From the NCBI GenBank assembly GCA_026394195.1, contig JAPKYS010000054.1, positions 20,583-84,582 of the forward strand: 64,000 bases of DNA, in the 5' to 3' direction. The notes below the pieces were generated by a model. It saw only the letters and a program-made list of their open reading frames with translations. It did no database searches and was not told the DNA's origin. Positions 3,985-57,090 of the stretch are shown here, one piece after another (within the stretch, counting starts at the first letter, position 1; every line of letters starts with the position of its first letter). The position numbers and the translations under genes were made by a program. The stretch is from a bacterium (GTDB lineage Bacteria; Electryoneota; B3-LCP).

Positions 3985-4101
3985 GAGCTGCGAAGCTATT
4001 CGCAGCAGTTTCCTGTCCGAATCGACTATTAGGGGTTCGCTCCAGAACTTCTGTCCAATACTTATTAATCCGACCGGGAAATACTCGACAAACTATAGGC
4101 C

Positions 4102-6813: not shown

Positions 6814-6818
6814 CATCG

Positions 6819-6842
6819 GAGGGGCGCGCTTCGTCGCGCCCT
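6819..6842 (+). terminator. GC hairpin GGGGCGCGC-TTCGT-CGCGCCC directly after the M1 peptidase stop
   Basis: Perfect inverted repeat. Member of the GGGGCGCAGC..GCTGCGCCCC hairpin family. Confidence 0.4.
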
Positions 6843-6984
6843 GATGATCTCATAATTTTGGACACGACAAAGCGTGTCCCTCCGGTTGTGGGCGGTTTTC
6901 GAACCGCCCCTTTCTGTTATGGGTAAAACAACGCTGAAAAAGCACCCCACCCCCAGAAAAATTTTCCTGAATATAAAATTCTAC

Positions 6985-7013
6985 TTGACTTTGACTAAAT
7001 AATTGAGTATATT
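6985..7013 (+). promoter_or_regulatory. Sigma70-like promoter TTGACT (6985-6990) - 17 nt - TATATT (7008-7013), with AATTGAGTATATT
   Basis: Same architecture and 13-mer as 913-941. About 170 nt upstream of the C25 peptidase start. Confidence 0.45.
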
Positions 7014-7182
7014 TTAACATGTGATTTTCATCTCTCCCTCAGATTCGAGGGCTGGATGTACAAAAATCATCTCGCGTTGCTTTGAAATCATCCAGCCGGT
7101 GATCTATACAGGAGGCAACGCAGTACAAAATCTGTGAAATAATACACATAATTAGCATAGTCAACTAAGCCATGGAGGTACA

Positions 7183-16191: not shown

Positions 16192-16193
16192 CC

Positions 16194-21246: not shown

Positions 21247-21274
21247 GGGCGCAGCATGCTGCGCCCCGTTTTTC
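21247..21274. terminator. Bidirectional rho-independent terminator GGGCGCAGCATGCTGCGCCCC flanked by T-runs on both strands
   Basis: Hairpin followed by GTTTTTCT on plus and TGTTTATTCT on minus. Sits between the convergent cusA and SBBP-repeat genes. Confidence 0.6.
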
Positions 21275-21300
21275 TCGTGACTCGTGACTCGAAACTCGTA

Positions 21301-40438: not shown

Positions 40439-43400
40439 CTATCCTTTGCGTAATTTCGCCATTTTCATCGTCTTTTCGATCTTGGTATCGCCGCGCCTGG
40501 CCATGATCTTATAAAAGTAGACTCCGTTGGCAATCGTCGATCCATCTTCATCCAATCCGTCCCAGTAAATTTCACCATAGTTGATTTCCTGAGCGGAGTT
40601 ACTGTAGAGTGTGCGGATCAACCGGCCCGAAACGGTGTAGATACGGATGCGGACCGGTTCGGTGGTCTGTTCGGTCAACCGGTAGGAGAAATAGGTCTTG
40701 TCGTTAAACGGGTTGGGGTAATTGCCTATGAAATCCAGCTTGAACTGTCCCACTACGGTGAACTGAATGCTGGCGGAACCGGTATTGCCGGCCAGATCGT
40801 GCGCTACCACCGAAACCGTGTGATTTCCGGTGGCGAACGTTGGGTTGATAGACAGGTTGAACACCTGACCGCTGTTTTCTATCCCGACGCTGACCAGGTT
40901 GGTATCCACCGCCACGCCATCCACCGAGATCCAGTAAGTACTGGTCTTAACGTTCACTCCGCCGACGTCCTGCACCAGGGCAGAAATCTTCGGCTGCATG
41001 GGAACGTACCCACCCTCAGTATAGATCTGTCCTTCGACGCTGAGCTCGATTTTGGGACCCTGATGGTCGCCGTTCTGCAGGATGGTAAACAGACCGGTTG
41101 AATGAGTCGAAACCGAATAACGGTACTTGACCGGTGGTGTGAAGGAAAGAGTATCCACCACGCTGTTCAAGCACTGCCAGAAAGGCTGCTCGCCGTTCTG
41201 CAAATGAATATACGTCTCGCTGTTGTCTGTCAGAGTATCATTTTGCACCTGTTGATCGACGCTGAGCTTCATCGAATCGCCGACGATCTGAATGCTTCCC
41301 AACAGATCGACTTCAAATCCCAGACCCGATGGCGACCCGTTGGAATCGGGCATGGCGAAGAAGAGCCCGTTCTGCATGGTCGGGATGGAGAGATCGTCTC
41401 GCATCCGGTAGATCATCACGCCCTGCCCGCTGACGCCTCCGGGTGGAATGAACAGCCGGAAAGAATCTCCCAAAGTCAAGGTGTCGGCGGTTCCCGTACT
41501 CGGGGAAATTGAGAAATGGTCGATCAGCAGCTGCTGTTGATAGAGAGCCGTGGAATCGAAACTCCCCCAGCCGGATTCATTGATAGATATTTCCAGATTG
41601 TGCCAGCCTGGATTCAGCGTCGAAATCACGTAGGCTTCCTGAGTCTGGTTAAACGGGAGGTTACGGATGATCGCCGTACCCAGTGGAACCAGAGCTGCGT
41701 CATGGAGATAGAAACGAACGTCCAGAGAATCTATGGTGGTTTGCCCCAGATTTTTCACTTGCACGATCAAGGCGGCCTGATTCTCCCGCATCCCCATGGT
41801 CAAGCTGCTGTCCACCCAGACCGGATTGGCGCGGCTGTCCAGGAAGGGAAAGTTCTTGTCTTCAGAAGTGGTCAAATTCCCCGACGAATCCTCTACCACC
41901 ACCCAGGCGACGATGCGGTCGGTAGGAGCGTAGTGATACGTGGCTGAATCCATCGGCGTCGTCGTATGGTACCAGGGTGGATTGACGGCGGGACTCATGG
42001 GCAGCGAGTCGTGCGGGACGATGGGAATGCCCTGGTTGGTTTCGATGATGTAATGCATCCGGGCTGAAGCTATCCCCTGAGCGTCCAGAATCCGAGCTTT
42101 CAGCGTGAAGGTATCCCGCGCGTAGACCGGTTCCGGATCGGTGGATAGTGAGTCGATGACGGAACCATCGGAGTAGGCATCCAGAAGGTACAGTGGAGCG
42201 ACTCCACGGTAGGTGGTTGATCCGATGGCATCCCAGAAACTTAGGCGATAACTGCCGCCCGAAAGGAAGGAGCTGTCGCCCAAAGCGGGCAGCGGAAACA
42301 CGGCACGCAATCCATCCGCGTAGGGAATCAGCGGAGTTTCATAAGGCGGTCCACCCAGTGGACCGAATTGCAGAGCCGGGTAATTATTACTGTCATAAAC
42401 CCGCAGCATTCCCTGGTAGCCGGAATAATTCCCCGGAACCAAGATAGTGATCGTATCGCCGCTGGAAGAGAACTGCGGTGAATACTGCACTGGATTTGAG
42501 TATCGGGTCGAATACGCCAGCTTTACCGATGGATCGCCCAGCAAATTCATCAGATGGATGGTATCGAACGCTTCGACGGACTGCCCCTGCTGCCCCCAGT
42601 AGGAATAGAAAGCGATCTTGGCAGCATTGACGACCTGTCCCAGCGACAGATTCTGGTCATCATAGATCAGCCCCACCAGAGTTTCCTGCAGGTAGCTTCC
42701 GTTTAGGAACCAGCCCAGACCGGTCGATCCGAGTACGGCAATTGCGCCTCGCTGCGGCACGAAAATAAATTCCTCGCCCAGCGTGGAGGCGTCCTGCAAG
42801 GCATCGAAAGCGCCGATGAAACAGGTGAAGTTGGTGACGAAGGGGTATTTGCCGAAGTTGGTAAGCTGGGGCAGATTATCGATGCGGAACAGGGAGTTAT
42901 CCGACCAGACGGCTCCAGCGCCGTGACCGTTGTAATCGACTGCTAACGCTCCCTGGTCCAACAGGTCGATCAGATCTGTTGTCGCGCCGTAAAATGGGTT
43001 GGTGGTCGGATCGGTCGCAAGACGTTCCGGCAGAACGTCATCGTCGAGTTGGTCGATGACTGCCTGACTGACCGACAGGAAGGTGTAGTTCTCTATCCCG
43101 CCGGTTCCGGAGACGAAGAGGTGCGTATTACGCCAGGCTCCGGGGCTGGGATTGGTATCGTACTCCTCTAATTTGGCGAGATAGTTATCCAACTCCTCCG
43201 TGTCGCGCGCCGAGATGCGTCCCACCGCCACGTCGGGGATTAAATCATCGTCCAGCAGCCCATACCAGAAATCGCTGGCGACAGATCCGTACGCCTTGGT
43301 TTGTATATAATGCGCCGGCATCAGATTCCCGCCGTTGCCGAAGATATTGCGTGTGTCGTAGGATCCGTCGCCGACTAACAGCAGGAACTCCGGTGGTTCT

Positions 43401-45466
43401 GGCAGCGCCAGCAGAAGATCTTTGATCGCCTGCGGATTATAGATTCCGTCCGAGAAGCTGTTGAAGACCTGGTCGATGAACACCAATTCCGTGCGTCCCA
43501 ATCCAGCCTGGCGGCGCTGCACCAACCCATCCAGAGCGGCGTCGTTCTCGAAATCCCGGTGAGCTACGATCAGCATCTTGATGGGGGGCCCCAATGACAA
43601 CTCCGCCAAAAGATCGTTGCCCTCGACCACCTGTGCTGAGTCGGGCTGCAATTTGGCGGAAGGCGTCAAGGCAACGTATTCCGGATCGCCATAGGGTCGA
43701 TCCTGAAAATGGACCTGATAGAATGTCGTATTATTGGCTCGGTAGGGGATGACCGAACCATTGATCACCTTGGACTGGCCCAGTTTGTAGATGCTGATAT
43801 CCGGCGAGGTAAAACCATCGACCCGGTAGTCGACCAGCGTGTCCGCCGCCGTTTCAGGAGACTTGAAGCGAATTTGATCATTGTAAGCCTTGTACAACCG
43901 CTGATAGGTCACTTCAAACCAGTTCAGCAGGAAGGTATCGTTGGGACCTGCGGGTGTATCTACAGGACAGAATATCGAGAGATTGTTATTGCCGTGGTGG
44001 ACGTCTCCAGGACCTATCCCCTCTTCGGAATAGAGGACCACGCCGGTTTGCCCCACCCACCAGGATGCTCCGGATGAACCTGCTTCCAGAGCCGCAGAGG
44101 TCTGGTCGTTCAGGATGACGTAGCCGTGATGCTGCCCTCCCAACCCGAAGATATCCGGATAGGTCAACCCCTGCAAAGCCACCTTGACCCGCACGTCGAT
44201 CAGAGCGTTCACATCGGGGTAGGGCAGGAAGCAGTTGTAAAGTTTGGTCTGTGACGCCGAAACGCCACCGTCCCAATACCAGTGCTCCTTCAGCGAATCC
44301 GGTCCGACCTGCGAGAGCCGGTTGAAGTACTGGTTCAGCTCGAAGTGTTCCCAATAGGGGTAGGAAAGCGCCCGGTACATTTTCAGAGGATCGACCTCGA
44401 CAATCTCACCGGTTTCTTCCACCAATCGGCTCCCCAGATTCCCTCCCCAGGACAGCCAGTAAACGTTGATGTCCGTGTAAAGATCGCTCCAGATCTGAGG
44501 ATTCTCTGTGGAAGAGGTCCCATGCAGCTTGTCGCCCCAGAATTCGACATAATCTCCTTCGTCGAAGCGGCCGTCTGCTTCTCCGGCGACGTAGATGGAC
44601 AGTTCCTGACCTTTGTTTTCCAACCGGATGGTGCGAGGATCGACTCCGGACAAATTGACACCGTAAGCAGACAAATCATCTGAACTCAGGTGATACAAGC
44701 CTCGGGTGGAAACGTAGATTTTGAGTTGGGTGCCGGTGAACTGGCTGGCGATGGCGGACTGCGAAGCACCACGGGTACGGCTTACCGGCAGGTGCAAAGC
44801 TCCGCTTAGCGATGCAACGGTGCCGGGAAGCAGGCTTTGAGTCGTGCCGCCTCCCGGTTGTACGGGGTATTCGATGCGAAATTTAATCGAGGTCAGATAG
44901 GTCAGCGACTTGGTGCGGGCGTCGAATCGAACCGGCGAGAATTGCAGCGTCGACAGTGGGACGCCGCGATGTTTTCCCAGCGGCGTCAGATCCGCCCAGC
45001 GGTCAGAACGAACCGGGGCGGCAGGCGCATTGGTTCGGCGGCCCGGAACGGTTTTCGCTGTTACGGCCGGTTTTGCCGCATCGGATTCGGTCAGCACTTC
45101 GTCCACCGGAGCGCGCTGGAGATCGGCATCGACCGGGAGCAGAGCCGTCCTCGCGTCTAAGATCTTCAGCGAGAGCGTGCGCGCCTCTCCCGGCAGCACC
45201 ATCTGGTAGACGGGCAGCAGGCGTTGATCGCTTCCGGCGACCAGAGGCAGTCTGCCCATCTGCACCTTGATGCCCGACGAACTGCTCAGGCATTCCGGTT
45301 TCGGGAAGATGATCTGCGCCTCGATAACGCCGGGCGATTCCTTGATGACCTTCAACACGGGATCTGAAGTCACAACCGCTTCGGGAAGGCTGTTCCCGAC
45401 CAACTTGGCGACGGCGTAACTGATCAACAATCCCGGTATGACGATGTAAAGCGCTTTCCGGAGGGT
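40439..45466 (-). CDS. Giant C25-family peptidase with T9SS CTD; PorU-like (T9SS C-terminal signal peptidase/sortase) candidate. Track ORF to 45553 uses a weak TTG; GTG at 45466 gives a proper signal peptide.
   Basis: Central C25 domain (about nt 42523-43483): LLLVGDGSYDTRN, FWYGLLDDDLIPDVAVGRI, His in VDYNGHGAGAVWSD, Cys in FVTNFTCFIGAF. C-terminal NPFNDKTYFSYRL...RRGDTKIEKTMKMAKLRKG, a T9SS CTD-like domain. PorV-like gene immediately downstream, as for porU-porV in Porphyromonas. Confidence 0.55.
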   Translation of the reverse strand, partial: TLRKALYIVIPGLLISYAVAKLVGNSLPEAVVTSDPVLKVIKESPGVIEAQIIFPKPECLSSSSGIKVQMGRLPLVAGSDQRLLPVYQMVLPGEARTLSLKILDARTALLPVDADLQRAPVDEVLTESDAAKPAVTAKTVPGRRTNAPAAPVRSDRWADLTPLGKHRGVPLSTLQFSPVRFDARTKSLTYLTSIKFRIEYPVQPGGGTTQSLLPGTVASLSGALHLPVSRTRGASQSAIASQFTGTQLKIYVSTRGLYHLSSDDLSAYGVNLSGVDPRTIRLENKGQELSIYVAGEADGRFDEGDYVEFWGDKLHGTSSTENPQIWSDLYTDINVYWLSWGGNLGSRLVEETGEIVEVDPLKMYRALSYPYWEHFELNQYFNRLSQVGPDSLKEHWYWDGGVSASQTKLYNCFLPYPDVNALIDVRVKVALQGLTYPDIFGLGGQHHGYVILNDQTSAALEAGSSGASWWVGQTGVVLYSEEGIGPGDVHHGNNNLSIFCPVDTPAGPNDTFLLNWFEVTYQRLYKAYNDQIRFKSPETAADTLVDYRVDGFTSPDISIYKLGQSKVINGSVIPYRANNTTFYQVHFQDRPYGDPEYVALTPSAKLQPDSAQVVEGNDLLAELSLGPPIKMLIVAHRDFENDAALDGLVQRRQAGLGRTELVFIDQVFNSFSDGIYNPQAIKDLLLALPEPPEFLLLVGDGSYDTRNIFGNGGNLMPAHYIQTKAYGSVASDFWYGLLDDDLIPDVAVGRISARDTEELDNYLAKLEEYDTNPSPGAWRNTHLFVSGTGGIENYTFLSVSQAVIDQLDDDVLPERLATDPTTNPFYGATTDLIDLLDQGALAVDYNGHGAGAVWSDNSLFRIDNLPQLTNFGKYPFVTNFTCFIGAFDALQDASTLGEEFIFVPQRGAIAVLGSTGLGWFLNGSYLQETLVGLIYDDQNLSLGQVVNAAKIAFYSYWGQQGQSVEAFDTIHLMNLLGDPSVKLAYSTRYSNPVQYSPQFSSSGDTITILVPGNYSGYQGMLRVYDSNNYPALQFGPLGGPPYETPLIPYADGLRAVFPLPALGDSSFLSGGSYRLSFWDAIGSTTYRGVAPLYLLDAYSDGSVIDSLSTDPEPVYARDTFTLKARILDAQGIASARMHYIIETNQGIPIVPHDSLPMSPAVNPPWYHTTTPMDSATYHYAPTDRIVAWVVVEDSSGNLTTSEDKNFPFLDSRANPVWVDSSLTMGMRENQAALIVQVKNLGQTTIDSLDVRFYLHDAALVPLGTAIIRNLPFNQTQEAYVISTLNPGWHNLEISINESGWGSFDSTALYQQQLLIDHFSISPSTGTADTLTLGDSFRLFIPPGGVSGQGVMIYRMRDDLSIPTMQNGLFFAMPDSNGSPSGLGFEVDLLGSIQIVGDSMKLSVDQQVQNDTLTDNSETYIHLQNGEQPFWQCLNSVVDTLSFTPPVKYRYSVSTHSTGLFTILQNGDHQGPKIELSVEGQIYTEGGYVPMQPKISALVQDVGGVNVKTSTYWISVDGVAVDTNLVSVGIENSGQVFNLSINPTFATGNHTVSVVAHDLAGNTGSASIQFTVVGQFKLDFIGNYPNPFNDKTYFSYRLTEQTTEPVRIRIYTVSGRLIRTLYSNSAQEINYGEIYWDGLDEDGSTIANGVYFYKIMARRGDTKIEKTMKMAKLRKG

Positions 45467-45877
45467 CACTTTTACGTTTAGAATTTGGGACCTTAGGTGG
45501 GATTTTGTGCTCAATTGCCTGATTAAATTAACCAAGTGGCAGCACAATTGCAAGGCAAATTATCAGAATTTAGACCTCAGTTTGTAAGATGGTGGAAGAA
45601 GAGTAGAGGTTTTTTTTAAATTCGTCATTCTTCAATCTTCAATCTTCAATCTCCAATTCGCAGCTGGGTGCCCCACAGCTCTGCTGTGGGTTGCTATGCT
45701 GGAGAAAACCGTAGTCGAGGTCGTCTGGCTTGCCATCCCTTCGGGGCCTGACCCCGACGGGAGTCAGTCATTCCGGCAAGCGAAGCGCGTCCGGAATCAC
45801 CTTGCCGTTACCGCCAACCTCGCCCCGCCCTGAAGGATGCGCCTTTTTTCTCGTGACTCGTGACACGTGACTCGTGG

Positions 45878-46100
45878 CTATTTTAAAATAACCACCTTCC
45901 CCGTCACCCGTTGCTGACCGGCGTCGAGGCGGATCAGATACACCCCCCAGTGCGCCCCTACAGCCCTCCCCTCCACATCGAACAATTCCACCCGCACCAA
46001 GCCCGCTCCCGGCAGCGTAAACCGCACCACCGCTCCGGCATTGGACGGGTTGGGGAAGAAAAAAGGCAGCAGAGAGCCGCCTTTAAGATTATTGAACCCG
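45878..46100 (-). pseudogene. Orphan, degenerate T9SS C-terminal sorting domain remnant (no upstream cargo body)
   Basis: Minus-strand frame reads ...FFFPNPSNAGAVVRFTLPGAGLVRVELFDVEGRAVGAHWGVYLIRLDAGQQRVTGKVVILK*. It has the CTD pattern (NPxN..I.F.LP.....V.L.V.D..GR.V....GKxVLLK) but lacks the middle segment. It is bounded upstream by the AT-rich island. Confidence 0.5.
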
Positions 46101-46116
46101 TCAAAGGAGCGTAGGA

Positions 46117-46971
46117 TTAGTCTGCCTTAGGGAACCATAGCATAGTAGCTCCAATGTGCTTATAAATAAATGACGAAAAGAATCTCTGCTTCACCCAAGG
46201 GCGAAGTGAATCAGGAATCGGTCCAAAATTTGCTTCTGTTACTTTGTTAAGGTCAAAACTCCAAATCTCATCGTTTCCGCCAATCTCTTTGAGGGCGCGA
46301 AGAAGATTTTTATTTGAATCCGCAAGAGAAGTCATGGGATATTCAGCCAGTTTATTTTTCAAAGAAGTGAAATTATCCTTGCTTATCTGCTCCTCTTCAC
46401 TATGCAAGAGGAAATACTCAGAATCCTCAGTAAAGGTAACAGATTTATGCCGTCCCGTAATCTTTTTGACGTCAAGGTGGGGGACCATGTCTAAAAGCCT
46501 ACCCTCCTGCCATGCAAGGTATAGATGTTGTTTCTGTAGAGTAGAGTTGGTAGCGTAAAATGTCGGGTAATTTTTATCTGCAAGGCCCTTTAAACGGTCC
46601 CATTGATGATAATCATCCACATATTCTTTAGCAGCATTTCGGGTAATGAAGGGAATCTTGAAACGATAAAATTCTTTACCCCAATGCTTCCACTCACTTG
46701 CCTTATCCGTAGTTAAAAGCCCAGAAAGCTTATACTGAAGGAAAAAGTTGCAACCTTCAGGATCAACGAGTTCAGTAGAGGGGAGCCAATCAAAATAGAA
46801 AGCAGTATCCCATCCAAGATTGAATTCAGCCCTCAGAGAAGGAACAATTGGAAGAATCCACACTCCTCTCTGTTTAACTATGTACCGAGTATATGCAGTA
46901 TTTACTGCTTGTTGAAGTTGAGATTCTGAGAAATCCGGTTCGCGCATAGAGTTCCTAATTCCATATCCCAT
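46117..46971 (-). CDS. Hypothetical protein (AT-rich island gene B, 284 aa)
   Basis: ORF in an about 40% GC segment. ATGA overlap with the upstream gene. Confidence 0.5.
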   Translation of the reverse strand: MGYGIRNSMREPDFSESQLQQAVNTAYTRYIVKQRGVWILPIVPSLRAEFNLGWDTAFYFDWLPSTELVDPEGCNFFLQYKLSGLLTTDKASEWKHWGKEFYRFKIPFITRNAAKEYVDDYHQWDRLKGLADKNYPTFYATNSTLQKQHLYLAWQEGRLLDMVPHLDVKKITGRHKSVTFTEDSEYFLLHSEEEQISKDNFTSLKNKLAEYPMTSLADSNKNLLRALKEIGGNDEIWSFDLNKVTEANFGPIPDSLRPWVKQRFFSSFIYKHIGATMLWFPKAD

Positions 46972-47504
46972 TAATTTGTTTCAATATCGTAATCTCCCTT
47001 CTTAGGATTAAAAAGAAATTTAACCTCTTGGGGGTAATCCTTCGCTGCAATTAAAAAAATTCGACGAATTTCTGCTATTGGTATTCGCCATATACAGTCA
47101 TTGCGATCATAATCTGAAACCACAAAAACGTCGCTCCAATTTCTACTCGCATCTCTAACTACAATGCTTGTGTACGCATGAATGAATTGGTTGGCAATAT
47201 ATCCAGGCTTTTTGATCTCGAGAATCTCTTGGTCCAAATTATAAAGCTCCCATATTTTGTGTCCATTTAGTTGAGTCACATTTTTGCCATGCGCCTGACA
47301 TGAGAACACGTTTAGCAGGTGTTCGCGAGTAGCTGTTGAGACTAGGCATAACTCAACCATTCTACGCACTATAAAGAAGCCTATCATAATATCTCGTTCG
47401 ATGATGCACTCAGCTCTATGGCTCCAGCGAGGTGGTTTAGGAACTCGGCGAAGGCTCCACGCAATGCGTTTAAGTTCTTCTTTCCAGTAACAGGACTCAA
47501 TCAT
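46971..47504 (-). CDS. Hypothetical protein (AT-rich island gene A, 177 aa)
   Basis: ORF translationally coupled to gene B. No family recognised. Confidence 0.5.
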   Translation of the reverse strand: MIESCYWKEELKRIAWSLRRVPKPPRWSHRAECIIERDIMIGFFIVRRMVELCLVSTATREHLLNVFSCQAHGKNVTQLNGHKIWELYNLDQEILEIKKPGYIANQFIHAYTSIVVRDASRNWSDVFVVSDYDRNDCIWRIPIAEIRRIFLIAAKDYPQEVKFLFNPKKGDYDIETN

Positions 47505-47656
47505 TAATCAACTACAGTTTAGAGATGATTAGATTAGCTTACCGTCAGATTCGATCTGGTGGTTCGATTTTTTAGCACGTCGTTAATACTATCAACCAGA
47601 GGTACCCGTCTCAGAGCTGAAGAGCCATTAAGGGATGATTATGTCCTGATGAAATT

Positions 47657-47866
47657 CTATGATTCTGTTAGGATAGCATCTAGTCCATTCCCATGTGTCG
47701 CCTTGTGGCATTGGCGATAAAGAGTGAGCCAATATTTTCGATCTTTTCTCTGGGCTTCGCTAGCCTCATAGAGGGCAATTCTATCCATGAGATCAAATGC
47801 AACCGCTTCCTTCGTTGATTGTTCAACCTTTACTGCGCCGGAAATTGACCTAGATGAGTCGGACAT
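47657..47866 (-). CDS. Small hypothetical protein (69 aa) in the AT-rich island
   Basis: ORF only. Charged, helical composition. Confidence 0.3.
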   Translation of the reverse strand: MSDSSRSISGAVKVEQSTKEAVAFDLMDRIALYEASEAQRKDRKYWLTLYRQCHKATHGNGLDAILTES

Positions 47867-48149
47867 TGATCTTTCTCCTCATTCATTATTAAGGTGGTAA
47901 AATTAGGCTATTGTAGTTCTTTTTTATAGCTAACTATATTTATTCTTGTCTATTCCTATTTCACAATATAACGAAATCTCCTCCCATAATCAAGTAATTT
48001 CTGCCATCTTTTTCTGCAAATCAGAACCCGCTTCAGAATTTGCGGGAGTGATTATTTAGGGCGGTATCCCCACCTTTTCTGGGCAGTCACGGACCATTCC
48101 GTGACTGCGTTCAAGATGGCATGGAATGGTCCATGCCACCCCAGATAAA

Positions 48150-48270
48150 ACGAAGCAATCCGGTCGACCTGGGTACGGGATTGCTTCGCTACGCTCGCAA
48201 TGACTGCTTTTTTCAGTCGTTTCAACGACTTGACGTCAACGAGCACCCGATTTCAATCGGGTGTTAAGCA
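48150..48270. repeat. Repeat modules CGAAGCAATCC..GGATTGCTTCG plus CGCTCGCAATGAC, GTCGTTTCAACGAC and AACGAGCACCCG..CGGGTGT
   Basis: Matches 50646-50720 (GTCATTGCGAGCGTAGCGAAGCAATCCGG..GATTGCTTCGG) and 49521-49534 / 49622-49657. Confidence 0.55.
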
Positions 48271-48434
48271 GCGGAACAGCCACCAACCCTGCCTCCGGAG
48301 CAGGCACTTGCTTCCATCTCGCTGAATTTTAGCCGGAACTTTTCGCACCATCTCTCGTTATGCTACTTGAGCCTCGCCAGAGGCTCCGACTTCCTATGAA
48401 ATAGACACAAATCATTGAAATTCAAGATTATACG

Positions 48435-49457
48435 TTGAGCGGAGGTTCTCCCGTGGCCATTACTCCCAGCTCCAAAGTCATCCAGGAAATCACTCGCCAG
48501 ATTGAAGAGCAATCGGCGTTTGTGGATGATCTGGTCGGACAGATACAGAACGAAATCGTCGGCCAGAAAAAGATGGTCGAACGGCTGCTGATCGGTCTTT
48601 TGGCAGACGGTCATATCCTGTTAGAAGGCGTCCCCGGTCTGGCGAAAACCATGGCGGCGAAGTCGCTGGCTATGGCGATCCAGGCGCGCTTTCAGCGCAT
48701 CCAGTTCACCCCCGACCTGCTCCCCGCCGACCTGATCGGCACCCTGATCTACAGCCAGAAGAGCGGCGATTTCACCGTCAAGCGCGGACCGATCTTCGCC
48801 AATTTCATCCTGGCGGATGAAATCAACCGCGCCCCCGCCAAGGTGCAGTCGGCGCTGCTGGAAGCCATGCAGGAACGTCAGGTGACCATCGGCGAACAGA
48901 CCTATCCGCTGGAAGCCCCCTTCCTGGTCTTAGCCACGCAGAACCCGATCGAACAGGAAGGAACCTACCCCCTGCCCGAAGCTCAGGTGGACCGCTTCAT
49001 GCTGAAAGTCCTGATCGATTATCCTCCCCGGGAAGAAGAGCGGGAAATCTTAAGACGCCATGCGGTCGCGCACCCCCTGAATATCAAACCGGTGATCTCG
49101 ACTCAGCAGATTTTGGAAGGCCGCCGCGCCGCCGCCATGATCTACGCCGACGAAAAGATCGAAAATTACATCTTGGACATCGTCTTCGCCACCCGCCAGC
49201 CGGAACAGTTCGGTCTGGCGAAATTGAAGAATTACATCTCCTACGGAGCTTCCCCCCGAGCCACCCTCTACCTGATGAACGCGGCAAAATGCCACGCCTT
49301 CCTGCGCCACCGCGGCTTCGTCATCCCCGACGACATCAAGGAGATCGGCCCGGACGTGCTGCGCCACCGCGTCACCGTCACCTACGAAGCCGAAGCCGAA
49401 GAGGTCACCCCTGAACAGGTGATTCAGGAGATTTTCAACAAAATCGAGGTACCGTAG
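48435..49457 (+). CDS. MoxR-family AAA+ ATPase
   Basis: Walker A GVPGLAKT, Walker B ILADEINRA, sensor and VWA-interacting C-terminus. 340 aa. TTG start in the track; GTG at 48452 is possible. Confidence 0.85.
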   Translation: MSGGSPVAITPSSKVIQEITRQIEEQSAFVDDLVGQIQNEIVGQKKMVERLLIGLLADGHILLEGVPGLAKTMAAKSLAMAIQARFQRIQFTPDLLPADLIGTLIYSQKSGDFTVKRGPIFANFILADEINRAPAKVQSALLEAMQERQVTIGEQTYPLEAPFLVLATQNPIEQEGTYPLPEAQVDRFMLKVLIDYPPREEEREILRRHAVAHPLNIKPVISTQQILEGRRAAAMIYADEKIENYILDIVFATRQPEQFGLAKLKNYISYGASPRATLYLMNAAKCHAFLRHRGFVIPDDIKEIGPDVLRHRVTVTYEAEAEEVTPEQVIQEIFNKIEVP

Positions 49458-49460
49458 GAA

Positions 49461-49657
49461 GTAACCAGGTATACAAGTGAACAAGTAACCAGGTAAAATG
49501 TTGACGGCTCTTGACACCAAGTCGTTGAAACGACTAAAAAAAACGTGTCATTCCGGCGAAGTCCGGAATCTGACACGTATCGCATGACATTGTTATCATT
49601 GGTTTTAACCAATTGATTTAAACGAGCACCCGTCCGCCTCAGGCGGATCATTCGGGT
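49461..49657. repeat. Intergenic repeat cluster (GTAACCAGG module 49461-49494, GTCGTTGAAACGAC hairpin plus A-run 49521-49542, ATTCC module 49544-49578, AACGAGCACCCG module 49622-49657)
   Basis: Each module matches copies elsewhere in the window. Confidence 0.55.
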
Positions 49658-49739
49658 GTGACCAAAGGCAACATAGTCGGGGTCGCCCCTGACCCCGACG
49701 GAGGGTAGCGCGGCAGCATGTGGCCGCAGGTAACCCAAG

Positions 49740-50615
49740 ATGGAAACTCGTGACATATTAAAAAAAGTCCGCCAGATCGAGATTAAAACCCGGGGCATCG
49801 TCGAAGAGATCTTCTCGGGGGAATATCACTCGGTCTTCAAAGGGCGGGGCATCGAATTCGCCGAAGTGCGCGAATACATTCCCGGCGACGACATTCGCGC
49901 CGTGGACTGGAACGTCACCGCTCGCATGGGGCAGCCGTTCGTCAAGCTGTTCGAAGAGGAGCGCGAACTGACTCTGATGCTGCTCTGCGACTTCTCTTCG
50001 TCGGGCTATTTCGGCACGCAGAAGCAGTTGAAAATCGAAATCGCCATCGAGGTGGCGGCGCTGTTAGCCTTTTCCGCCATTAAGAATCACGATAAAGTCG
50101 GACTCTTGCTTTTCACCGATTCCATCGAAAAATACGTCCCCCCCAAAAAGGGCAAGACTCACGTCCTGCGCATCCTGCGGGAATTGATCTCGTTCCAGCC
50201 GGAACGAGCCGGGACTAACATCAAGGAAGCCTTAAGCTACTTCAGCCGCTTGCAATCGCGCCGCTGCATCGTCTTCTTGATCAGCGATTTCTGGGATGAC
50301 GGCTATCAGGACGCCTTACGGCTGGTCGGCAAAAAGCATGACCTGATCGCCCTGACCTTGCGCGATCCCCGCGAAGAGACCATCCCGCCGGTGGGATTGA
50401 TCAAACTGCAGGACGCCGAAACCGGTCAGGAATTCTGGCTGGACAGCTTCGACGACAAAGCCCGAAAACAGATCCAAAATTTAGTCGCCGAAAAGCGGCG
50501 CAACCTGAAGACGCTGCTGCGCTCCGCGGGCGTTGATCAGATCGAATTATCCACGCCGGAAGACTATATTATCCCACTGAACCGCTTCTTCCGCATGAGG
50601 GCGAAACGGCGATGA
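49740..50615 (+). CDS. DUF58 domain protein (MoxR-partner, VWA-like)
   Basis: Conserved DIRAVDWNVTARMGQPFVK...LLCDFSSS block typical of DUF58. Follows moxR. Confidence 0.8.
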   Translation: METRDILKKVRQIEIKTRGIVEEIFSGEYHSVFKGRGIEFAEVREYIPGDDIRAVDWNVTARMGQPFVKLFEEERELTLMLLCDFSSSGYFGTQKQLKIEIAIEVAALLAFSAIKNHDKVGLLLFTDSIEKYVPPKKGKTHVLRILRELISFQPERAGTNIKEALSYFSRLQSRRCIVFLISDFWDDGYQDALRLVGKKHDLIALTLRDPREETIPPVGLIKLQDAETGQEFWLDSFDDKARKQIQNLVAEKRRNLKTLLRSAGVDQIELSTPEDYIIPLNRFFRMRAKRR

Positions 50616-51754
50616 TGCAGCAATCTGGCAATCTCAACTCGCGCGTCATTGCGAGCGTAGCGAAGCAATCCGGTAGATATGGGAACGAGATTGCTTCGGC
50701 TCCTGCGGAGCCTCGCAATGACTGCAAAAGGTCAAGTTCTTTTGTTAATTGGATCTCCAGTAGCCTGAGGACAGCCCGAATTCTGATTCTCTCGATATTA
50801 ATTTTTATCTCGTTCTCTTCCGCCTCCCCCGCCGCTGCGTCAATCACCGCCTCTCTGCAGGGTCTCCCCGACTCCACCAAATTCGGTGACCCGCTGAAAC
50901 TTCAGATAACCGTAACCTCTCCCCCAGATGGCAAGATTCTGCTGCCGGATTGGACCAAGGCGCTGGAGCCTTTTGAACTACTATCCCCCCCAGACACTTC
51001 GCAGCAGCAGATTGTCAACGGACAGCGGCAATGGAACCTCAAGCTGAACGCCGTCTGCTACCAGGCGGGAGCGCAGGTCTTTAAATCCCTCACCTTCAAG
51101 TGGATTTCCGCTGACGGGTCCGTCATTGATTCTGCTGCGACTGACGTAAAGATCGTAGAGGTTCAGAATGTCATCCCCGATTCGATCTTGGCTGTCGCCG
51201 ATTCCACTCAGCAGCCGCATCACCTGCTGCGCCCCAACCGTCAGTGGAAGCTGGGTTACTCATTGGCTGATTTTTATATCTATATCCTGATTCTGTTCGG
51301 AGCAGCAGCAGCGTACTTTCTCATCCGCTGGTACCTGCGCAAGCGCCGCAGCAAGGTAGTGGAAGCGGTTGCAGGACCTCCTCCCGAACCGGCGCACGTC
51401 ATCGCCCTGCGAGCCCTTGACCACCTGCGCGACCAGCAGTTGTTCCAGGCAGGGCGCATCAAAGACTACTACAGCGAACTCAGCGAAATTTTGCGGCGCT
51501 ACTTCGAACTCCGCTTCGACGTCCCCGCCATGGAATCGACCAGTTTCCAGTTGTTGCGGGACATCGAAGTACATCTCGGAGATAAAGAACTGATCGCTTC
51601 TCTGGAAACACTGTTGACCGACGCCGATCTGGCCAAGTTCGCCAAGCACCAACCGAATGCGAATACCTGTCAGCAGGACCTCGAGCAAGCGTATACCCTG
51701 GTCAATCAGACCAAGCCCGCTCCTAAACCGCTCCTTTCCGAGGAGGCGGCATGA
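50612..51754 (+). CDS. DUF4381-like membrane protein of the bat operon; N-terminal 40 codons are encoded by a dispersed repeat
   Basis: ATGA overlap with the DUF58 gene. Hydrophobic segment ILILSILIFISFSSASPAAA. TM helix YIYILILFGAAAAYFLIRWY. Positioned between the DUF58 and batA genes as in Bacteroides bat loci. Confidence 0.55.
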   Translation: MMQQSGNLNSRVIASVAKQSGRYGNEIASAPAEPRNDCKRSSSFVNWISSSLRTARILILSILIFISFSSASPAAASITASLQGLPDSTKFGDPLKLQITVTSPPDGKILLPDWTKALEPFELLSPPDTSQQQIVNGQRQWNLKLNAVCYQAGAQVFKSLTFKWISADGSVIDSAATDVKIVEVQNVIPDSILAVADSTQQPHHLLRPNRQWKLGYSLADFYIYILILFGAAAAYFLIRWYLRKRRSKVVEAVAGPPPEPAHVIALRALDHLRDQQLFQAGRIKDYYSELSEILRRYFELRFDVPAMESTSFQLLRDIEVHLGDKELIASLETLLTDADLAKFAKHQPNANTCQQDLEQAYTLVNQTKPAPKPLLSEEAA

Positions 51755-52554
51755 TCGAATTTAAAGATCCGCTCTACCTGCTGCTGCTCCTTTTGATACC
51801 GATTTTCCTGATCTGGAACTACTTCCGAGGCAGCCGGCGCAAGGTGGCGATTAAATTCCCAACCTTGAATCTGATTAAATCGACCGGAGGTGGTGTAGGC
51901 GCGAAATACCGTCACCTGCTGACTCTGCTGCGCTACGCCGCGCTGATTCTGTTGATTTTCGCGCTGGCGAGACCGCAAAAACTCTCGCAGGAAAAGAACG
52001 TCCAGACCGAGGGCATCGACGTCATGCTGGCTCTGGATATTTCCACCAGTATGCTGGCTGAAGATTTCAAGCCCAAGAACCGCATCGAAGCGGCGAAACA
52101 GGTGGCTGAAGAGTTTATAGCAGGACGAAACTCTGATCAGATCGGTCTGGTGGTTTTCGCCGGTCAGAGCTTCACCCAATGCCCTTTGACCCTGGATTAT
52201 ACTCTGCTGAAACAACTCCTCGAACGGGTCAACGTCGAGCTGGTGACGGGCGGACAGATTGAGGACGGCACCGCCATCGGTATGGCGATCGCCAACGCGG
52301 TCAACCGTCTGCGAGCCTCTCAGGCCAAATCCCGCATCATCATCCTGCTGACCGACGGTCAGAACAACCGCGGGGAAATCGACCCCCAGACCGCGGCGGC
52401 AGCCGCGCAGGCTTTGGGGCTTCGCATTTACACTATCGACCGGCGGGAAATACTATCGCGCCAAAGACACGGAGGCTCTGCGGCGCATTTACAGCGACAT
52501 CGACCGGCTGGAAAAAAGCAAGATCCGGGTGCACCAGTATCGCCAGAAATCTGA
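51751..52554 (+). CDS. batA: VWA domain protein BatA; frame disrupted near 52438. The authentic C-terminus (..TGGKYYRAKDTEALRRIYSDIDRLEKSK..) continues in the +1 frame to 52642.
   Basis: N-terminal TM. VWA MIDAS motif DISTSM. IYTI then frame switch. The +1 frame ends with ATGA overlap onto batB. Confidence 0.6.
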   Translation: MIEFKDPLYLLLLLLIPIFLIWNYFRGSRRKVAIKFPTLNLIKSTGGGVGAKYRHLLTLLRYAALILLIFALARPQKLSQEKNVQTEGIDVMLALDISTSMLAEDFKPKNRIEAAKQVAEEFIAGRNSDQIGLVVFAGQSFTQCPLTLDYTLLKQLLERVNVELVTGGQIEDGTAIGMAIANAVNRLRASQAKSRIIILLTDGQNNRGEIDPQTAAAAAQALGLRIYTIDRREILSRQRHGGSAAHLQRHRPAGKKQDPGAPVSPEI

Positions 52555-52638
52555 ATTATTCCTCCCTTATCTGGCTGTAGCGCTGCTGCTTCTACTGGCA
52601 GAAATATCACTCTCTTCGACTCGCCTGAGGACCATGCC

Positions 52639-53679
52639 ATGATTCGCTGGGGTTATCCACAGTTTTTTTATCTGCTGCTGTTGCTGCCCATATTGGGTGT
52701 ATTTCTGTTTATTATCAAACGGCGCAAGAATCGGCAGCTCAGGGATGCTTTCGCCTCCTCGACGCTGCTGGCTATGATCGCACCGGGGATATCGTTCACC
52801 CGACAAAGCCTTAAAGACGTCTTGTTGCTGGTCGCGCTGCTCTTCATGATCATAGCGCTGGCAGATCCTCAGGTGGGCACGCGCATCGAACAGATCAAGC
52901 GGGAAGGTATCGATCTGGTGATTGCGGTGGACGTCTCCTATTCGATGCTGGCGAAGGATATCGCGCCTTCCCGCCTGGAAAAAGCCAAGCATGAAATCCG
53001 CAGTCTGCTGGATCGTCTGCAGGGTGACCGGGTGGCGCTGGTGGCGTTTTCCGGGAAGGCGATCGTCGAATGTCCGCTGACGCTCGACTACGGAGCGGCG
53101 GAAATTTTTCTGGACGTGATCGACCCCACTCTGATATCCATGCCCGGCACTTCGCTGGCCGCAGCGATACGCACCTCGCTGAAAGCCTTCGCGGAGGACA
53201 GCCCTGCCAGCAAAGCCATGGTGCTCATCACCGATGGTGAAGATCATGAACAACAGGTAGATGAAGCCATCAAGGAAGCCAAAGCCAAGGGAGTTATCAT
53301 CCACGCCGTGGGGATCGGTTCGGTACAAGGCGTGCCGATTCCTGCCGGAGATCTGGGAGGCGACTTCAAAAAAGACCGGCAGGGCAACGTGGTGGTCACC
53401 AAGTTGGATGAAGCGATTCTGCAGCAGATCGTCTCCGAAACCGGAGGTGTGTATCAGCGCTGCAGCAGCAGCGAAGACGAATTGAAAGCCATCACCAACG
53501 CTATCGCCGGGTTGGAAAAGGGTGAGTTGGGATCAAAACAATTCACTCAATATGAGCATCGCTATCAACCCTTCCTGGTGGCTGCCCTCATCCTGCTGGT
53601 TCTGGAATTCCTGACCTCGGATCGCCGCAGACGGCTGCCGCGCTTCTTAAGAATCCTCTTTGCGGAGGAACAGAAATGA
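52639..53679 (+). CDS. batB: VWA domain protein BatB
   Basis: TM helices at both ends. VWA with DVSYSM MIDAS motif. 346 aa. Confidence 0.8.
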   Translation: MIRWGYPQFFYLLLLLPILGVFLFIIKRRKNRQLRDAFASSTLLAMIAPGISFTRQSLKDVLLLVALLFMIIALADPQVGTRIEQIKREGIDLVIAVDVSYSMLAKDIAPSRLEKAKHEIRSLLDRLQGDRVALVAFSGKAIVECPLTLDYGAAEIFLDVIDPTLISMPGTSLAAAIRTSLKAFAEDSPASKAMVLITDGEDHEQQVDEAIKEAKAKGVIIHAVGIGSVQGVPIPAGDLGGDFKKDRQGNVVVTKLDEAILQQIVSETGGVYQRCSSSEDELKAITNAIAGLEKGELGSKQFTQYEHRYQPFLVAALILLVLEFLTSDRRRRLPRFLRILFAEEQK

Positions 53680-54437
53680 TCAAACGCATAATACTGATTA
53701 TCACGGCGTTGGCTCTGTTGACGTCAATGGCATCAGCCTCCTGGCGCGGCAAAGTGCGCACCGGAGATAAGCTTTACGAACAAGGTAAATACGATGATGC
53801 GTTGGTCAAATATCTCGAAGGCTTGAGTCAAAAAGGAGACTCGGCGCGCATCGGCTACGACCTGGGCAACGTCTTTCAGGGGCAGGAAAAATTCAAGGAA
53901 GCCGGGCAAGCCTTCCAGGGAAATATGGCGCGACGCGACAGCCTGGGTCGAGCGGACGCGCTTTACAACCTGGGCAATGCCCTCTTCGGTGAACAGAAAT
54001 ATCAGGACGCTGCCCAGGCATACAAATCCGCCCTGAAGCTGAAACCGGCTCAAACCGACTACCTGCACAATCTGGCTTTGGCGGAAAAATTGATCCAGAA
54101 ACAGCAGCAACAACAGAAAAACAAAGACAACAAGGATCAGAAAGACCAGAAACAGGATCAACAGCAGAATCAGGATAAGCAGAAGCAGGATCAACAAAAA
54201 CAAGACCAGCAAAAACAACAGGATCAGAAGAACCAGCAGGAACAAGATCAAGCACAACAGAACCAGGATCAAAAGAAAGACCAGGATCAGCAACAGCAAC
54301 AACCCTTGCAGGCTCAGCAGATGTCCAAAGAGGACGCTCTGAGACTACTGAACGCCATCCAGAGCGACGAAAAGCGCGTACAGGAAAACCTGCACAAACA
54401 ACCCGTCACCGAAGGCGGAGTCGCCAAGGATTGGTAA
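53676..54437 (+). CDS. batC: TPR protein BatC with Q/K/D-rich low-complexity tract
   Basis: TPR units (YDLGNVF, YNLGNALF). About 65-aa QQKNKDNKDQKDQKQDQQ... tract. C-terminal KEDALRLLNAIQ motif typical of BatC. Confidence 0.75.
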   Translation: MIKRIILIITALALLTSMASASWRGKVRTGDKLYEQGKYDDALVKYLEGLSQKGDSARIGYDLGNVFQGQEKFKEAGQAFQGNMARRDSLGRADALYNLGNALFGEQKYQDAAQAYKSALKLKPAQTDYLHNLALAEKLIQKQQQQQKNKDNKDQKDQKQDQQQNQDKQKQDQQKQDQQKQQDQKNQQEQDQAQQNQDQKKDQDQQQQQPLQAQQMSKEDALRLLNAIQSDEKRVQENLHKQPVTEGGVAKDW

Positions 54438-54475
54438 ATACTGAATTGAATCTATTCCAGGTACAACCAAAAACC

Positions 54476-56317
54476 ATGCGCAGGATTATTTTACTTACAG
54501 CGATTATTCTCCTCGCCTACGGGTGCGCAGCCTCTGCCGCAGAAATAAATTTCCGCGCCGCCACAGACCGCAATACCCTAAGCATGTCCGAGTCGCTGAC
54601 GCTTAGCTTTCATCTCGAAGGCAAGATGTCCAACGTCCCCGATCCGCAAATGCCGGATCTTTCCGATTGGAACGTCCTGTCCGGACCCAATGAATCTTCA
54701 TCGTTCCAATTCATCAACGGGCAGACGTCGTACAGCAAAGACTGGAGTTTCGTCCTTAATCCTAAACGCGCCGGGCAGTTGACCATCGGTTCTGCGCTGC
54801 TGACCATAAAGAATCTGACCTATCGCACCGATCCGATCACCGTCACCGTGTCGGGGCAAGCCAGCCCTGCTCCGTCGTCAGCACAGCCCCTGCCGACGCC
54901 GCCAAGTTCGGCTCCGCAGAGCGGCAGCGAACCCTCTGAACTTTTCGTGCGCGTCAACGCTGACAACACCAATATCTATCAAAATCAACAGGTGATTCTC
55001 ACCTATACCATCTATACACGGGTCAATGTCAACGGCTTTGAGGTCAGCAAGCTGCCCAGCACTCCCGGATTCTGGCAGGAGGATTTTCAACAGGCTCAGC
55101 AACCGCCGGTTCGGGATGAAGTCATCTCTGGGCGGCATTACCGCGCCGCCCAGATCAGGCAAGTGGCTCTATTCCCCACCCGCTCAGGGGATCTGACCAT
55201 CGATCCTCTGGAGGTCACCTGTCAGGTTCAGATGCAGGACACGCAGCGTCGCCGCCGCGACCCCTTCGACATGTTCTTCGACAGCCCCTTCGCAGGCTAC
55301 CGCACTGAAAAACGGGTGGTATCCACGCAACCATTGACACTGCACGTCAAACCGCTCCCTGAAGATGGTAGACCTGCTGATTATTCCGGATCGGTCGGCG
55401 ATTTTAATCTGATAGTCGACCTGGATAAACAGGCAGTCAAGACCAATGAAGCCCTGACCATGACCGTCAGGTTCAACGGCAGCGGCAATATAAAAGCTCT
55501 ACCTAAACCAAATTTTAGCGCGCCGTCCGATTTCGAAGCCTACGATCCCAAGGAATCGGTGCAGGTCGATAAATCCGGCGGCAGAGTGACCGGCACCAAA
55601 ACCTTCGAATACATACTCATCCCACGCGCACCCGGCAAGACTCGTCTTCCACCGATCAGCTTTTCCTATTTTGATCCAGCCTCGAGAAGTTACCGTACTC
55701 TGACAGGCGGCGGCTATGACCTTGAAGTGGCAAAGGGGTCGGGAGAATTGGCGTCATCTGTCCCCGGAATAGCCCGGGAAGACGTGAAACTGCTGGCAGA
55801 GGACATCCATTACCTTAAGACACCCCAACGGCTGCTGCGCATCGGACCTCCTCGTGACCTTTCATTCGGCTATTGGGCCTTAATGATCCTTCCACCGCTG
55901 CTGGCGCTGCTCTTATGGTGGGGGGCACGCATGCTGGGCGGAGCCGCCTTACAAGCAAAATTGCGCTCGCACAAGGCATATGATCGAGCAAAACGCCAAA
56001 TGCGTGAGATCGGCAAAACGTCTGCAAGCAGCAAGCCGGAAATCGTTTTCGGCGGCGTGCACAAGATTCTGATGGATTTCATCAGCGAAAAACTGAATGC
56101 TCCCGCTTCAGGTTTGAAGGAAGAGGAAATCCTGGAAAAAATCGCCGAAAACCAGATCGAAGCGGCGATGGTCGAAGAAGTGAAGAACGTTTTTCTCGAA
56201 TGCAACTTCGCCCGATTTACCTCCGGTAACGTGGAGGCACAGCAAAAAGACCAAATCGTCAGGCGTGCTGAACAGATCGTAGAACACATTGAGATTTACT
56301 GGGGAGGCAAGTCATGA
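54476..56317 (+). CDS. batD: BatD (oxygen-tolerance) protein
   Basis: Signal peptide MRRIILLTAIILLAYGCAASA. Large extracytoplasmic domain. C-terminal TM (ALMILPPLLALLLWW) and cytoplasmic tail. Track ORF 54431 is trimmed to the ATG at 54476. Confidence 0.75.
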   Translation: MRRIILLTAIILLAYGCAASAAEINFRAATDRNTLSMSESLTLSFHLEGKMSNVPDPQMPDLSDWNVLSGPNESSSFQFINGQTSYSKDWSFVLNPKRAGQLTIGSALLTIKNLTYRTDPITVTVSGQASPAPSSAQPLPTPPSSAPQSGSEPSELFVRVNADNTNIYQNQQVILTYTIYTRVNVNGFEVSKLPSTPGFWQEDFQQAQQPPVRDEVISGRHYRAAQIRQVALFPTRSGDLTIDPLEVTCQVQMQDTQRRRRDPFDMFFDSPFAGYRTEKRVVSTQPLTLHVKPLPEDGRPADYSGSVGDFNLIVDLDKQAVKTNEALTMTVRFNGSGNIKALPKPNFSAPSDFEAYDPKESVQVDKSGGRVTGTKTFEYILIPRAPGKTRLPPISFSYFDPASRSYRTLTGGGYDLEVAKGSGELASSVPGIAREDVKLLAEDIHYLKTPQRLLRIGPPRDLSFGYWALMILPPLLALLLWWGARMLGGAALQAKLRSHKAYDRAKRQMREIGKTSASSKPEIVFGGVHKILMDFISEKLNAPASGLKEEEILEKIAENQIEAAMVEEVKNVFLECNFARFTSGNVEAQQKDQIVRRAEQIVEHIEIYWGGKS

Positions 56318-57090
56318 AGAGACCTTCGATGCCTTTCCGGTGCGCACTGTTGATCGCAGGACTGCTGACGATTGCGCTGGTTGCGGCGGCTCAGAACCCG
56401 CAAGGAGATCTCGGCGCCGCTGAAAAGCTGTACCGATCGGGTGATTATCAGGGCGCCGCCGACGTTTACCAGAACCTGCTGCGCCAGGGGTGGGCTAACG
56501 GTGAATTATACTACAATCTCGGCAACTGCTTCTTCAAGACGGGCAGATACGGCCAAGCTATCCTGAATTACGAACGAGCCCGCCTCTTTCTCGGCAAGGA
56601 CCCCGATCTGGAAATCAACCTGAAGCTCGCCAATTTGAGGATTTTCGACCGAATCGAACCACTGCCGCGAGTTTTCTTTATCAAGATCGTTGAATCGGTG
56701 GGAGGCTGGTTCTCGGTGCGCCGCTGGGGAACGTTTCTCATCGCCATCGAGTGGCTGCTGCTGGCTTGCCTGGTCGCTCTGCATCTGCTGCGTGACCCTA
56801 AAGCGCGCAAGCTGTTCGTGGGTGGATTTTTTGTTTTGGCGACCGCAATGATCATTGCGGGTGGATTTTTCTGGTTGGAAAAAATCAGCCAGGATCGCAG
56901 GACTGAGGCTATTGTTCTGGTGAACAAAGCTGACGTGCGCAGCGCCCCCGAAGCTGGGGCAACCGAGCTTTTCACCCTGCACGACGGAGCCAAATTGACA
57001 GTCTTGCGGGAGGTATCGGGCTGGGCGGAAATTCGACTTGCCGATGGCAAACAGGGCTGGCTGCAATTGACGGCTTTCGAGGAAATTTAG
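56314..57090 (+). CDS. batE: BatE-like TPR/SH3 domain protein
   Basis: TPR units (YYNLGNCFFKTGRYGQAILNYERA). Two TM helices. C-terminal SH3b-like (GWAEIRLADGKQGWL). Confidence 0.7.
   Translation: MKRPSMPFRCALLIAGLLTIALVAAAQNPQGDLGAAEKLYRSGDYQGAADVYQNLLRQGWANGELYYNLGNCFFKTGRYGQAILNYERARLFLGKDPDLEINLKLANLRIFDRIEPLPRVFFIKIVESVGGWFSVRRWGTFLIAIEWLLLACLVALHLLRDPKARKLFVGGFFVLATAMIIAGGFFWLEKISQDRRTEAIVLVNKADVRSAPEAGATELFTLHDGAKLTVLREVSGWAEIRLADGKQGWLQLTAFEEI

Follow-up and report, generated by a model that had tools for sequence, protein, structure and literature searches.

We describe here a short AT-rich segment in a bacterium of the Electryoneota, found in a 64,000-nt stretch (the window) of contig JAPKYS010000054.1 (assembly GCA_026394195.1, positions 20,583 to 84,582). 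The segment carries three minus-strand genes, called p276, p177 and p69 after the lengths of their products in amino acids (aa). We prefer the view, to which we give a probability of about one half, that it is a horizontally acquired mini defence islet made up of solo genes and not a dedicated multi-gene system. The view starts from direct observations: the segment has a foreign composition, the families of its two larger genes are big, these families do not occur together elsewhere, and the remnant of a host gene lies at one edge. What the proteins do is a more tentative matter.

The course of events could be pictured as follows. A foreign segment would have settled between a PorU-like gene of the type IX secretion system (T9SS) and a MoxR-DUF58 operon, at a place where a T9SS cargo gene has shrunk to the stump of its sorting domain. 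It would have brought p177 and p276, whose families are unrelated to each other, strongly conserved and widely transferred; at the other loci examined, each family stands alone in variable islets. Each gene would serve by itself as an accessory gene of the kind found in defence islands: p276 perhaps a metal-dependent nuclease of the PD-(D/E)xK kind, acting through E8, E41, D47 and Q71-x-K73, and p177 a separate protein with a conserved surface that appears rich in E, H and D. The features are collected in Table 1.

Table 1. Features of the AT-rich segment and its edges (positions in the window)
Feature	Position	Strand	Basis
AT-rich foreign segment	46082-48058	n/a	Change-point fit, GC profiles, GC3, Logan contig L010
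p276, 276 aa; uncharacterised widespread family, candidate PD-(D/E)xK-like nuclease	46117-46947	-	Homologs, start, profile search
p177, 177 aa; second, unrelated, uncharacterised widespread family	46971-47504	-	Homologs, AlphaFold2 model
p69, 69 aa; rare family, first gene of putative transcription unit	47657-47866	-	3 homologs, Shine-Dalgarno
Promoter-like site TTGATT-17-TATATT upstream of p69	47965-47993	-	Consensus scan only; weak
Terminator-like hairpin and T-run, 33 nt after p276 stop, at island/remnant junction	46062-46084	-	Consensus scan
Truncated T9SS type-A C-terminal sorting domain without cargo	45878-46117	-	TIGR04183 and tblastn; homology to the domain from about 46057-46090
Native dispersed repeat modules between PorU-like gene and sorting-domain remnant	45616-45875	.	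Families D6, D7, D13 and D15; further copies in other parts of the window
Native dispersed intergenic repeat modules, high-coordinate edge	48151-48204	.	38-nt module and 26-mer recur at 50645-50698

Composition, origin and edges of the segment

An earlier note on this DNA, made from the sequence alone, had placed a sharp fall in G+C content (GC) at about 46117-48050. The fall is real. A maximum-likelihood fit of two change points over 43-51 kb sets the limits of the block as given in Table 1, with a GC of 0.403 within and 0.558 outside. When all intervals of 1934 nt in the 64 kb are compared, the lowest value (0.404) is a unique minimum and falls at this block; the other intervals average 0.535 (standard deviation 0.017), and none of them is below 0.48. 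The most AT-rich part, at 47875-47975, has a GC of only 0.22-0.30. The note had also proposed a profile of codon usage, and by this measure too the block departs from its host: GC at third codon positions (GC3) is 0.37-0.40 in the open reading frames (ORFs) of p69, p177 and p276 vs. 0.62-0.76 in eight host genes sampled across the window. By composition and codon usage, the block has the character of a horizontally acquired island.

The same genes could be native and ancient, their low GC being maintained by selection or by constraints of expression. Nothing specific speaks for this, except that the genes are intact, with expression signals that look plausible. It would have to be reconciled with a GC3 about 0.3 below that of every host gene sampled, and with nearest homologs that are only 58% (p276) and 72% (p177) identical and are spread over Proteobacteria, Cyanobacteria, Planctomycetota and Nitrospirota. 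Moreover, homologs of p276 are AT-skewed in their own hosts, their GC being below that of their flanks in 11 of 12 loci (e.g., 0.40 vs. 0.68 and 0.35 vs. 0.57). A native origin is thus very improbable. That the block at about 46.08-48.06 kb is foreign DNA, recently acquired by horizontal transfer and still un-ameliorated, appears to us highly probable.

An abrupt compositional break in a metagenome-assembled genome can also suggest a chimera of assembly or binning, in which case the block would not belong to this genome at all. Against this stands a Logan contig (L010, run SRR20698647) from a different assembler, which is 100% identical to the window over 46010-48204. It crosses both junctions, reaching into the sorting-domain remnant at one end and into a host repeat module at the other, and contig ends fall at host repeat modules (48204 and 50670) rather than at the GC boundaries. 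Since an independent contig is identical across both junctions, a chimera is very unlikely.

At the low-coordinate edge, the earlier note had seen a degenerate T9SS C-terminal sorting domain (CTD) with no cargo upstream, and the closer analysis agrees. A frame of 79 codons at 45881-46117 matches the type-A CTD model TIGR04183 with 30.3 bits (E-value 3e-7; cutoff 23). In tblastn it aligns to the three intact CTDs of the window (ending at 6810, 10011 and 21304), with about 20 internal residues missing. A few codons upstream of 46117 a stop closes the frame, which lacks a cargo, a signal peptide and a usable start; the sole ORF within it, 50 aa long, begins at an internal GTG. The remnant therefore resembles the known type-A domains (TIGR04183/PF18962) in its score and alignment, but differs from them in being some 20 residues short and cargo-less: it is a pseudogene stump. 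Its 3′ flank bears a CTCGTGACTCGTGAC module that also follows an intact CTD gene at 21263-21299, and for this reason the low-coordinate side is taken to be native. The repeat modules that had been reported at the opposite edge are likewise present; they have copies elsewhere in the window (Table 1) and precede the MoxR-DUF58 operon. A 64-aa ORF at 48052-48246 was considered as a gene and rejected, since it consists of repeat modules of the host and matches no family.

How the segment came to lie beside the stump is less simple than an insertion. No N-terminal (5′) cargo fragment is found in 48059-48434, on the far side of the block. Insertion into a cargo gene is therefore not sufficient, and a deletion or a replacement is needed as well. 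Either the arrival of the segment was accompanied by deletion, or the stump is older debris. Searches for a sister genome found none: exact look-up of the DUF58 protein gave only contigs of about 1 kb from the same population, a metagenome scan with the N-terminus of the PorU-like protein gave no match, and a scan with MoxR peaked at 68% identity, without PorU synteny.

Two independent gene families

The earlier note had listed ORFs of 177, 284 and 69 aa and had described the first two as ATGA-coupled. All three exist, on the minus strand, but 284 aa is not the real length of the largest protein and the coupling appears to be an artefact of taking the longest ORF. The longest ORF over p276 does run from 46117 to 46971 (284 aa). 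However, all 34 aligned homologs begin with MREPNFSE, which corresponds to M9 of the long ORF (46947), and this ATG has its own AGGA 5 nt upstream. The protein from the family start has 276 aa. The overlap of the long ORF with p177 is a TAATG, one base, and is present for the longest ORF alone; with the family start at M9, the real spacing between p177 and p276 is about 23 nt.

Homologs of p276 number more than 150, at 47-58% identity, in hosts that include Methylobacter, Microcystis, Ralstonia, Paraburkholderia, Brenneria, Iodobacter, Nitrospirota and Dehalococcoidales. A search with the family profile finds 274 clusters (at 50% identity) at E-values of 1e-3 or below, and the family is strictly length-conserved. 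A distant branch (P0324-P0394) has proteins of about 290 aa, with an insertion of 20-50 residues between a conserved D and QxK; Pfam finds no domain in the ten distant relatives searched. Plasmids gave one match to p276, of uninformative annotation. A match within p276 to the mcrA small RNA of Rfam (22.7 bits, where the gathering score is 57.6) was dismissed as noise.

The p177 family is also uniform: its more than 250 homologs (55-72% identity) are all 177 aa long and all begin with MIES. Hosts include Methylohalobius, Planctomycetia and Phycisphaerae. More distant relatives, of 26-30% identity, lie on plasmids of Scytonema, Halioglobus and Leptospira (three plasmid matches, again with uninformative annotation). 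The residues E3, S4, W7, E36, R47, E51, Q106, H109, S130, D131 and D171 are kept even in these relatives, which suggests an enzyme or a specific binding site. The AlphaFold2 model of p177 is confident, with a mean predicted local distance difference test score (pLDDT) of 91.3, and shows two helices at the N-terminus that pack against an alpha/beta domain of seven strands. Foldseek finds no match to this model in the PDB (TM score 0.24 or below), nor do profiles of the family match PDB sequences. The public annotation of the genome shortens p177 to 138 aa (MCX6640985.1).

The third gene, p69, has three homologs (47-62% identity) that share an invariant DRKYWLTLYRQC-KA core, and because of this core it is probably a real gene. 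A strong GAGGAG Shine-Dalgarno sequence lies 9 nt before its ATG. No homolog of p69 is found in any other p177 or p276 locus. It was seen only from the Logan data and has evidently not been called by NCBI. A likeness of p69 to AcrIC5 (E-value 0.057; 14 bits vs. a cutoff of 27) was set aside as noise. The promoter-like site upstream of p69 falls in the most AT-rich part of the block; the terminator-like hairpin after p276 reaches into the frame of the CTD remnant at its N-terminal edge. These two sites would make p69, p177 and p276 one minus-strand transcription unit.

The note had called the proteins orphans without family motifs. It was right that they match no library, but with more than 150, more than 250 and 3 homologs they are not orphans. 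The homologs of p276 and p177 are all labelled "hypothetical protein," and none of their accessions was found in the searchable literature.

It was also proposed in the note that the two larger genes form a toxin-antitoxin (TA)-like or anti-phage module, i.e., that p177 and p276, with or without p69, are the interdependent parts of a dedicated system. Several local features are in keeping with this. The genes are on the same strand, 23 nt apart (or, with the long ORF, overlapping by 1 nt); they are nearly equal in GC (0.404 and 0.409) and in GC3 (0.376 and 0.372); and the unit lies between one promoter-like and one terminator-like site. The near-identity of composition and the close spacing show that p177 and p276 arrived together.

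Arriving together does not make the genes a pair, and the comparison with other genomes separates them. The comparison set had 15 independent p276 loci and 7-8 loci of p177 relatives, in which ORFs within ±5 kb were considered. In none of them is a p177 gene adjacent to a p276 gene. When the loci were searched by tblastn for the other family, it was absent except from the window and its identical Logan copy, and in the homolog lists of the two proteins the lengths of the longest contigs agree only for this genome. An all-against-all BLASTP of the neighbouring ORFs revealed no recurrent neighbour of either gene. Same-strand genes do lie upstream of p276 homologs (238, 239, 297, 349 and 402 aa), but they are related neither to one another nor to p177; the idea that they represent a diversifying partner of p276 was dropped, as they have no shared similarity. 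We can thus say with good confidence that p177-p276 is not a conserved pair.

The solo state of each family is a strong argument against a two-component or TA-like module. Neither protein looks like any known toxin, antitoxin or component of a defence system, the members of both families, as solo genes, keep strictly to one length, and the start that would give translational coupling is not the family start. The likeness to type II toxin-antitoxin systems stops at small, closely spaced, same-strand genes on foreign DNA: the pair is not conserved, no toxin or antitoxin family is represented, and both proteins are too large and too conserved as solo genes. An interdependent two-gene system is thus improbable, and of the module proposed in the note only a defence-type role is left, as something made plausible by the neighbours of homologs elsewhere.

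Possible functions of p276 and p177

Our preferred reading, an islet of solo defence genes, draws first on what p276 might be. Seven residues are invariant in its superfamily (26 sequences, down to 15-25% identity): E8, E41, D47, Q71, K73, Q115 and Y131. In the AlphaFold2 model (pLDDT 77.7; predicted TM score 0.78), E8 opens a helix (8-27), Q71-x-K73 ends a strand (65-73), Q115 opens a helix (114-124) and Y131 lies in a strand (129-133). Nucleases of the PD-(D/E)xK kind have the order acidic residue in a helix, acidic residue in a strand, (D/E)xK in a strand, then a helix and a strand. The acidic residues and the (D/E/Q)xK of p276 follow this order, except that Q stands in the motif where D or E would be usual. 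Because of the order, we propose p276 as a metal-dependent nuclease, a tentative assignment whose chances we would put well short of even.

Among known proteins, the parallel would be with single-gene defence nucleases of the PD-(D/E)xK kind, namely Shedu SduA (DUF4263) and type IV restriction enzymes such as Mrr. Like these, p276 stands alone in variable or defence regions; it is AT-rich relative to its hosts and widely transferred, with an invariant acidic-acidic-QxK series in the right order, and at most of its loci no methyltransferase partner is called for. A methyltransferase is near p276 in only 2 of the 15 loci (Dcm in one Ralstonia strain, a D12 methyltransferase in a Brenneria prophage), and none adjoins it in the 64-kb window, which is not what a type II restriction-modification (RM) system would present. 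Two names that surfaced in per-member Pfam scans of both families, Cfr10I/Bse634I (a single member, E-value 0.089) and TPK_B1_binding (six members, E-values of 0.0046 or above), are at the level of noise.

The second line of evidence is the company that the homologs keep. One p177 homolog comes directly after a DUF4011/AAA_11/AAA_12/MTES_1575/DUF3320 helicase, and another lies between an unknown gene and Mrr, near SIR2 and Phd/PIN. A third is in a block with SLFN_AlbA_2, TIR_2-FRG, CAP12-PCTIR_TIR-TPR, an integrase and ApeA-HEPN, and a fourth follows another SLFN_AlbA_2 gene, and the islet that holds both seems to interrupt an MR_MLE gene (locus L114, about 3100-8200). Homologs of p276 are found beside type I HsdM/HsdS, AAA_13, WYL, NYN, Trypsin_2 and a 1292-aa AAA_22 protein; beside HNH, WYL-WCX and a double-AAA protein; near Phd/PIN and three tyrosine recombinases, with Dcm in one strain; and, within a Mu-like prophage, next to a methylase of the Dam type. 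In yet another case, a p276 homolog and a DUF2971 gene lie between hypF and hypC of a NiFe-hydrogenase hyp operon (locus L117, 7001-9239). The hyp operon and MR_MLE cases show both families moving about in small islets, which come to rest inside operons or other genes.

When neighbours were scanned with PADLOC, 146 ORFs gave matches to 275 models vs. 113 models for 140 control ORFs from unrelated MoxR loci, a small sample with a crude control in which models and not proteins are counted, and in which the assignment of a match to a given neighbour is by inference. The models matched by neighbours include Hhe, Avs2, type I RM, mREase_IV, RT_VI, DpdF, PDC-S37, PDC-S08 and mad2, whereas the top control matches listed are mostly GajB/UvrD helicase and type IIG models. 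The general likeness is to the defence islands and islets of integration hotspots: a short block of foreign DNA between conserved host genes, whose accessory genes are not related to one another, with homologs elsewhere that adjoin RM, SLFN, TIR and Mrr genes and PADLOC matches to Avs2 and Hhe.

The neighbourhoods can also be read in another way. Both genes could be cargo of mobile DNA without a defence role (selfish or addiction nucleases, anti- or counter-defence proteins, or other accessory functions), hitch-hiking in variable regions. The Mu-like prophage with Dam, the recombinase trios, a resolvase with ParB/RepB and plasmids with Rpn transposases are all contexts of this kind, as are the islets that interrupt the hyp operon or the MR_MLE gene. 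Yet neither gene is tied to a particular mobility gene, both are rare on plasmids, and known defence genes do recur as neighbours. A search of 50,697 phage genomes gave no match to either p276 or p177, and among 2.9 million viral contigs there was a single match to one of the two and none to the other. From this near-absence, host-side accessory genes are a better fit than phage genes, and we regard plain mobile cargo as an unlikely, if respectable, explanation.

A number of points weigh against the defence islet, or against parts of it. In Pfam, NCBIfam, PADLOC and PHROGs, none of the three proteins has a curated match, and in PADLOC-DB v2.0.0, the search that the earlier note had proposed, no family comes up for any of them even at E-values up to 1. 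Unlike Shedu and Mrr, p276 matches no PADLOC or Pfam nuclease model by sequence, nor any nuclease structure by Foldseek; in the PDB and BFVD, Foldseek finds no other fold for it either, and its family and superfamily profiles match no PDB sequences. Pfam hmmscan of 35 family members and the ten distant relatives of p276 gives nothing consistent, and residues 34-61, which hold E41 and D47, are disordered or not confidently modelled. The PADLOC contrast can only be called suggestive, since it is a count of models from a small sample against a crude control, and several p276 and p177 contexts have no defence genes at all, a fact that favours mobile cargo. Nor does any hallmark account for the integration: there is no integrase or recombinase ORF within the block, the only tRNA of the window is at 31342 and thus not near it, and the direct repeats that the note had suggested at the two edges did not appear, the longest direct or inverted repeat being of 7 nt, a length reached in 39-53% of shuffles. 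The block therefore differs from typical defence islands, since it holds neither a recognised defence gene nor an integrase, a tRNA or a repeat of att type. Finally, p177 and p276 may co-operate locally in this genome, although this would not be a property of the families.

Taken part by part, a defence role for at least one of p177 and p276 is, in our estimate, somewhat short of an even chance. It is rather doubtful that each of them founds a new stand-alone family directed against phages or mobile elements, in which case p276 would be an unrecognised PD-(D/E)xK-like branch (about 270 clusters at 50% identity, with the distant branch of about 290 aa) and p177 a compact, confident fold (pLDDT 91) without a PDB counterpart by Foldseek.

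The surrounding window and the meaning of the locus

The ORF next to the CTD remnant, of 1704 aa on the minus strand (40439-45553), is PorU-like: its C-terminus (the last 153 residues were scanned) matches the PorU model NF033707 (E-value 2.6e-24) as well as TIGR04183. The islet thus adjoins core T9SS machinery. Three intact cargo genes with T9SS type-A CTDs are also present in the window, at 4279-6813 and 7183-10014 on the plus strand and at 21301-23142 on the minus strand; the last has six tandem repeats of 159 nt (53 aa) at 21675-22772. On the other side of the segment, an operon on the plus strand (48435-57090) begins with genes for a MoxR-type AAA ATPase and for DUF58/VWA proteins, followed by further ORFs on the same strand. 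It resembles a Bat-type aerotolerance cluster, of which the search identified only the DUF58/VWA domains. The intergenic DNA of the window has many families of short dispersed palindromic modules (e.g., GGGGCGCAGCATGCTGCGCCCC, in six copies), found for example at 10044, 21242, 28870, 32563, 33466 and 60314. A 77-nt direct repeat, its copies 159 nt apart, lies at 16335-16570, inside the ORF 16140-17744.

The locus itself is of a familiar kind, a small laterally acquired islet beside gene debris. It serves to illustrate that tight spacing and a shared foreign composition do not alone define a "system": here, the comparative context dissolved an apparent module. It is the families that are new candidates. 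If the defence reading is true, p177 and p276 would be minimal examples of two widespread and conserved families that have no annotation, Pfam model or solved relative. Both families would then be candidates for new single-gene immunity proteins, one of them maybe a new branch of nucleases.

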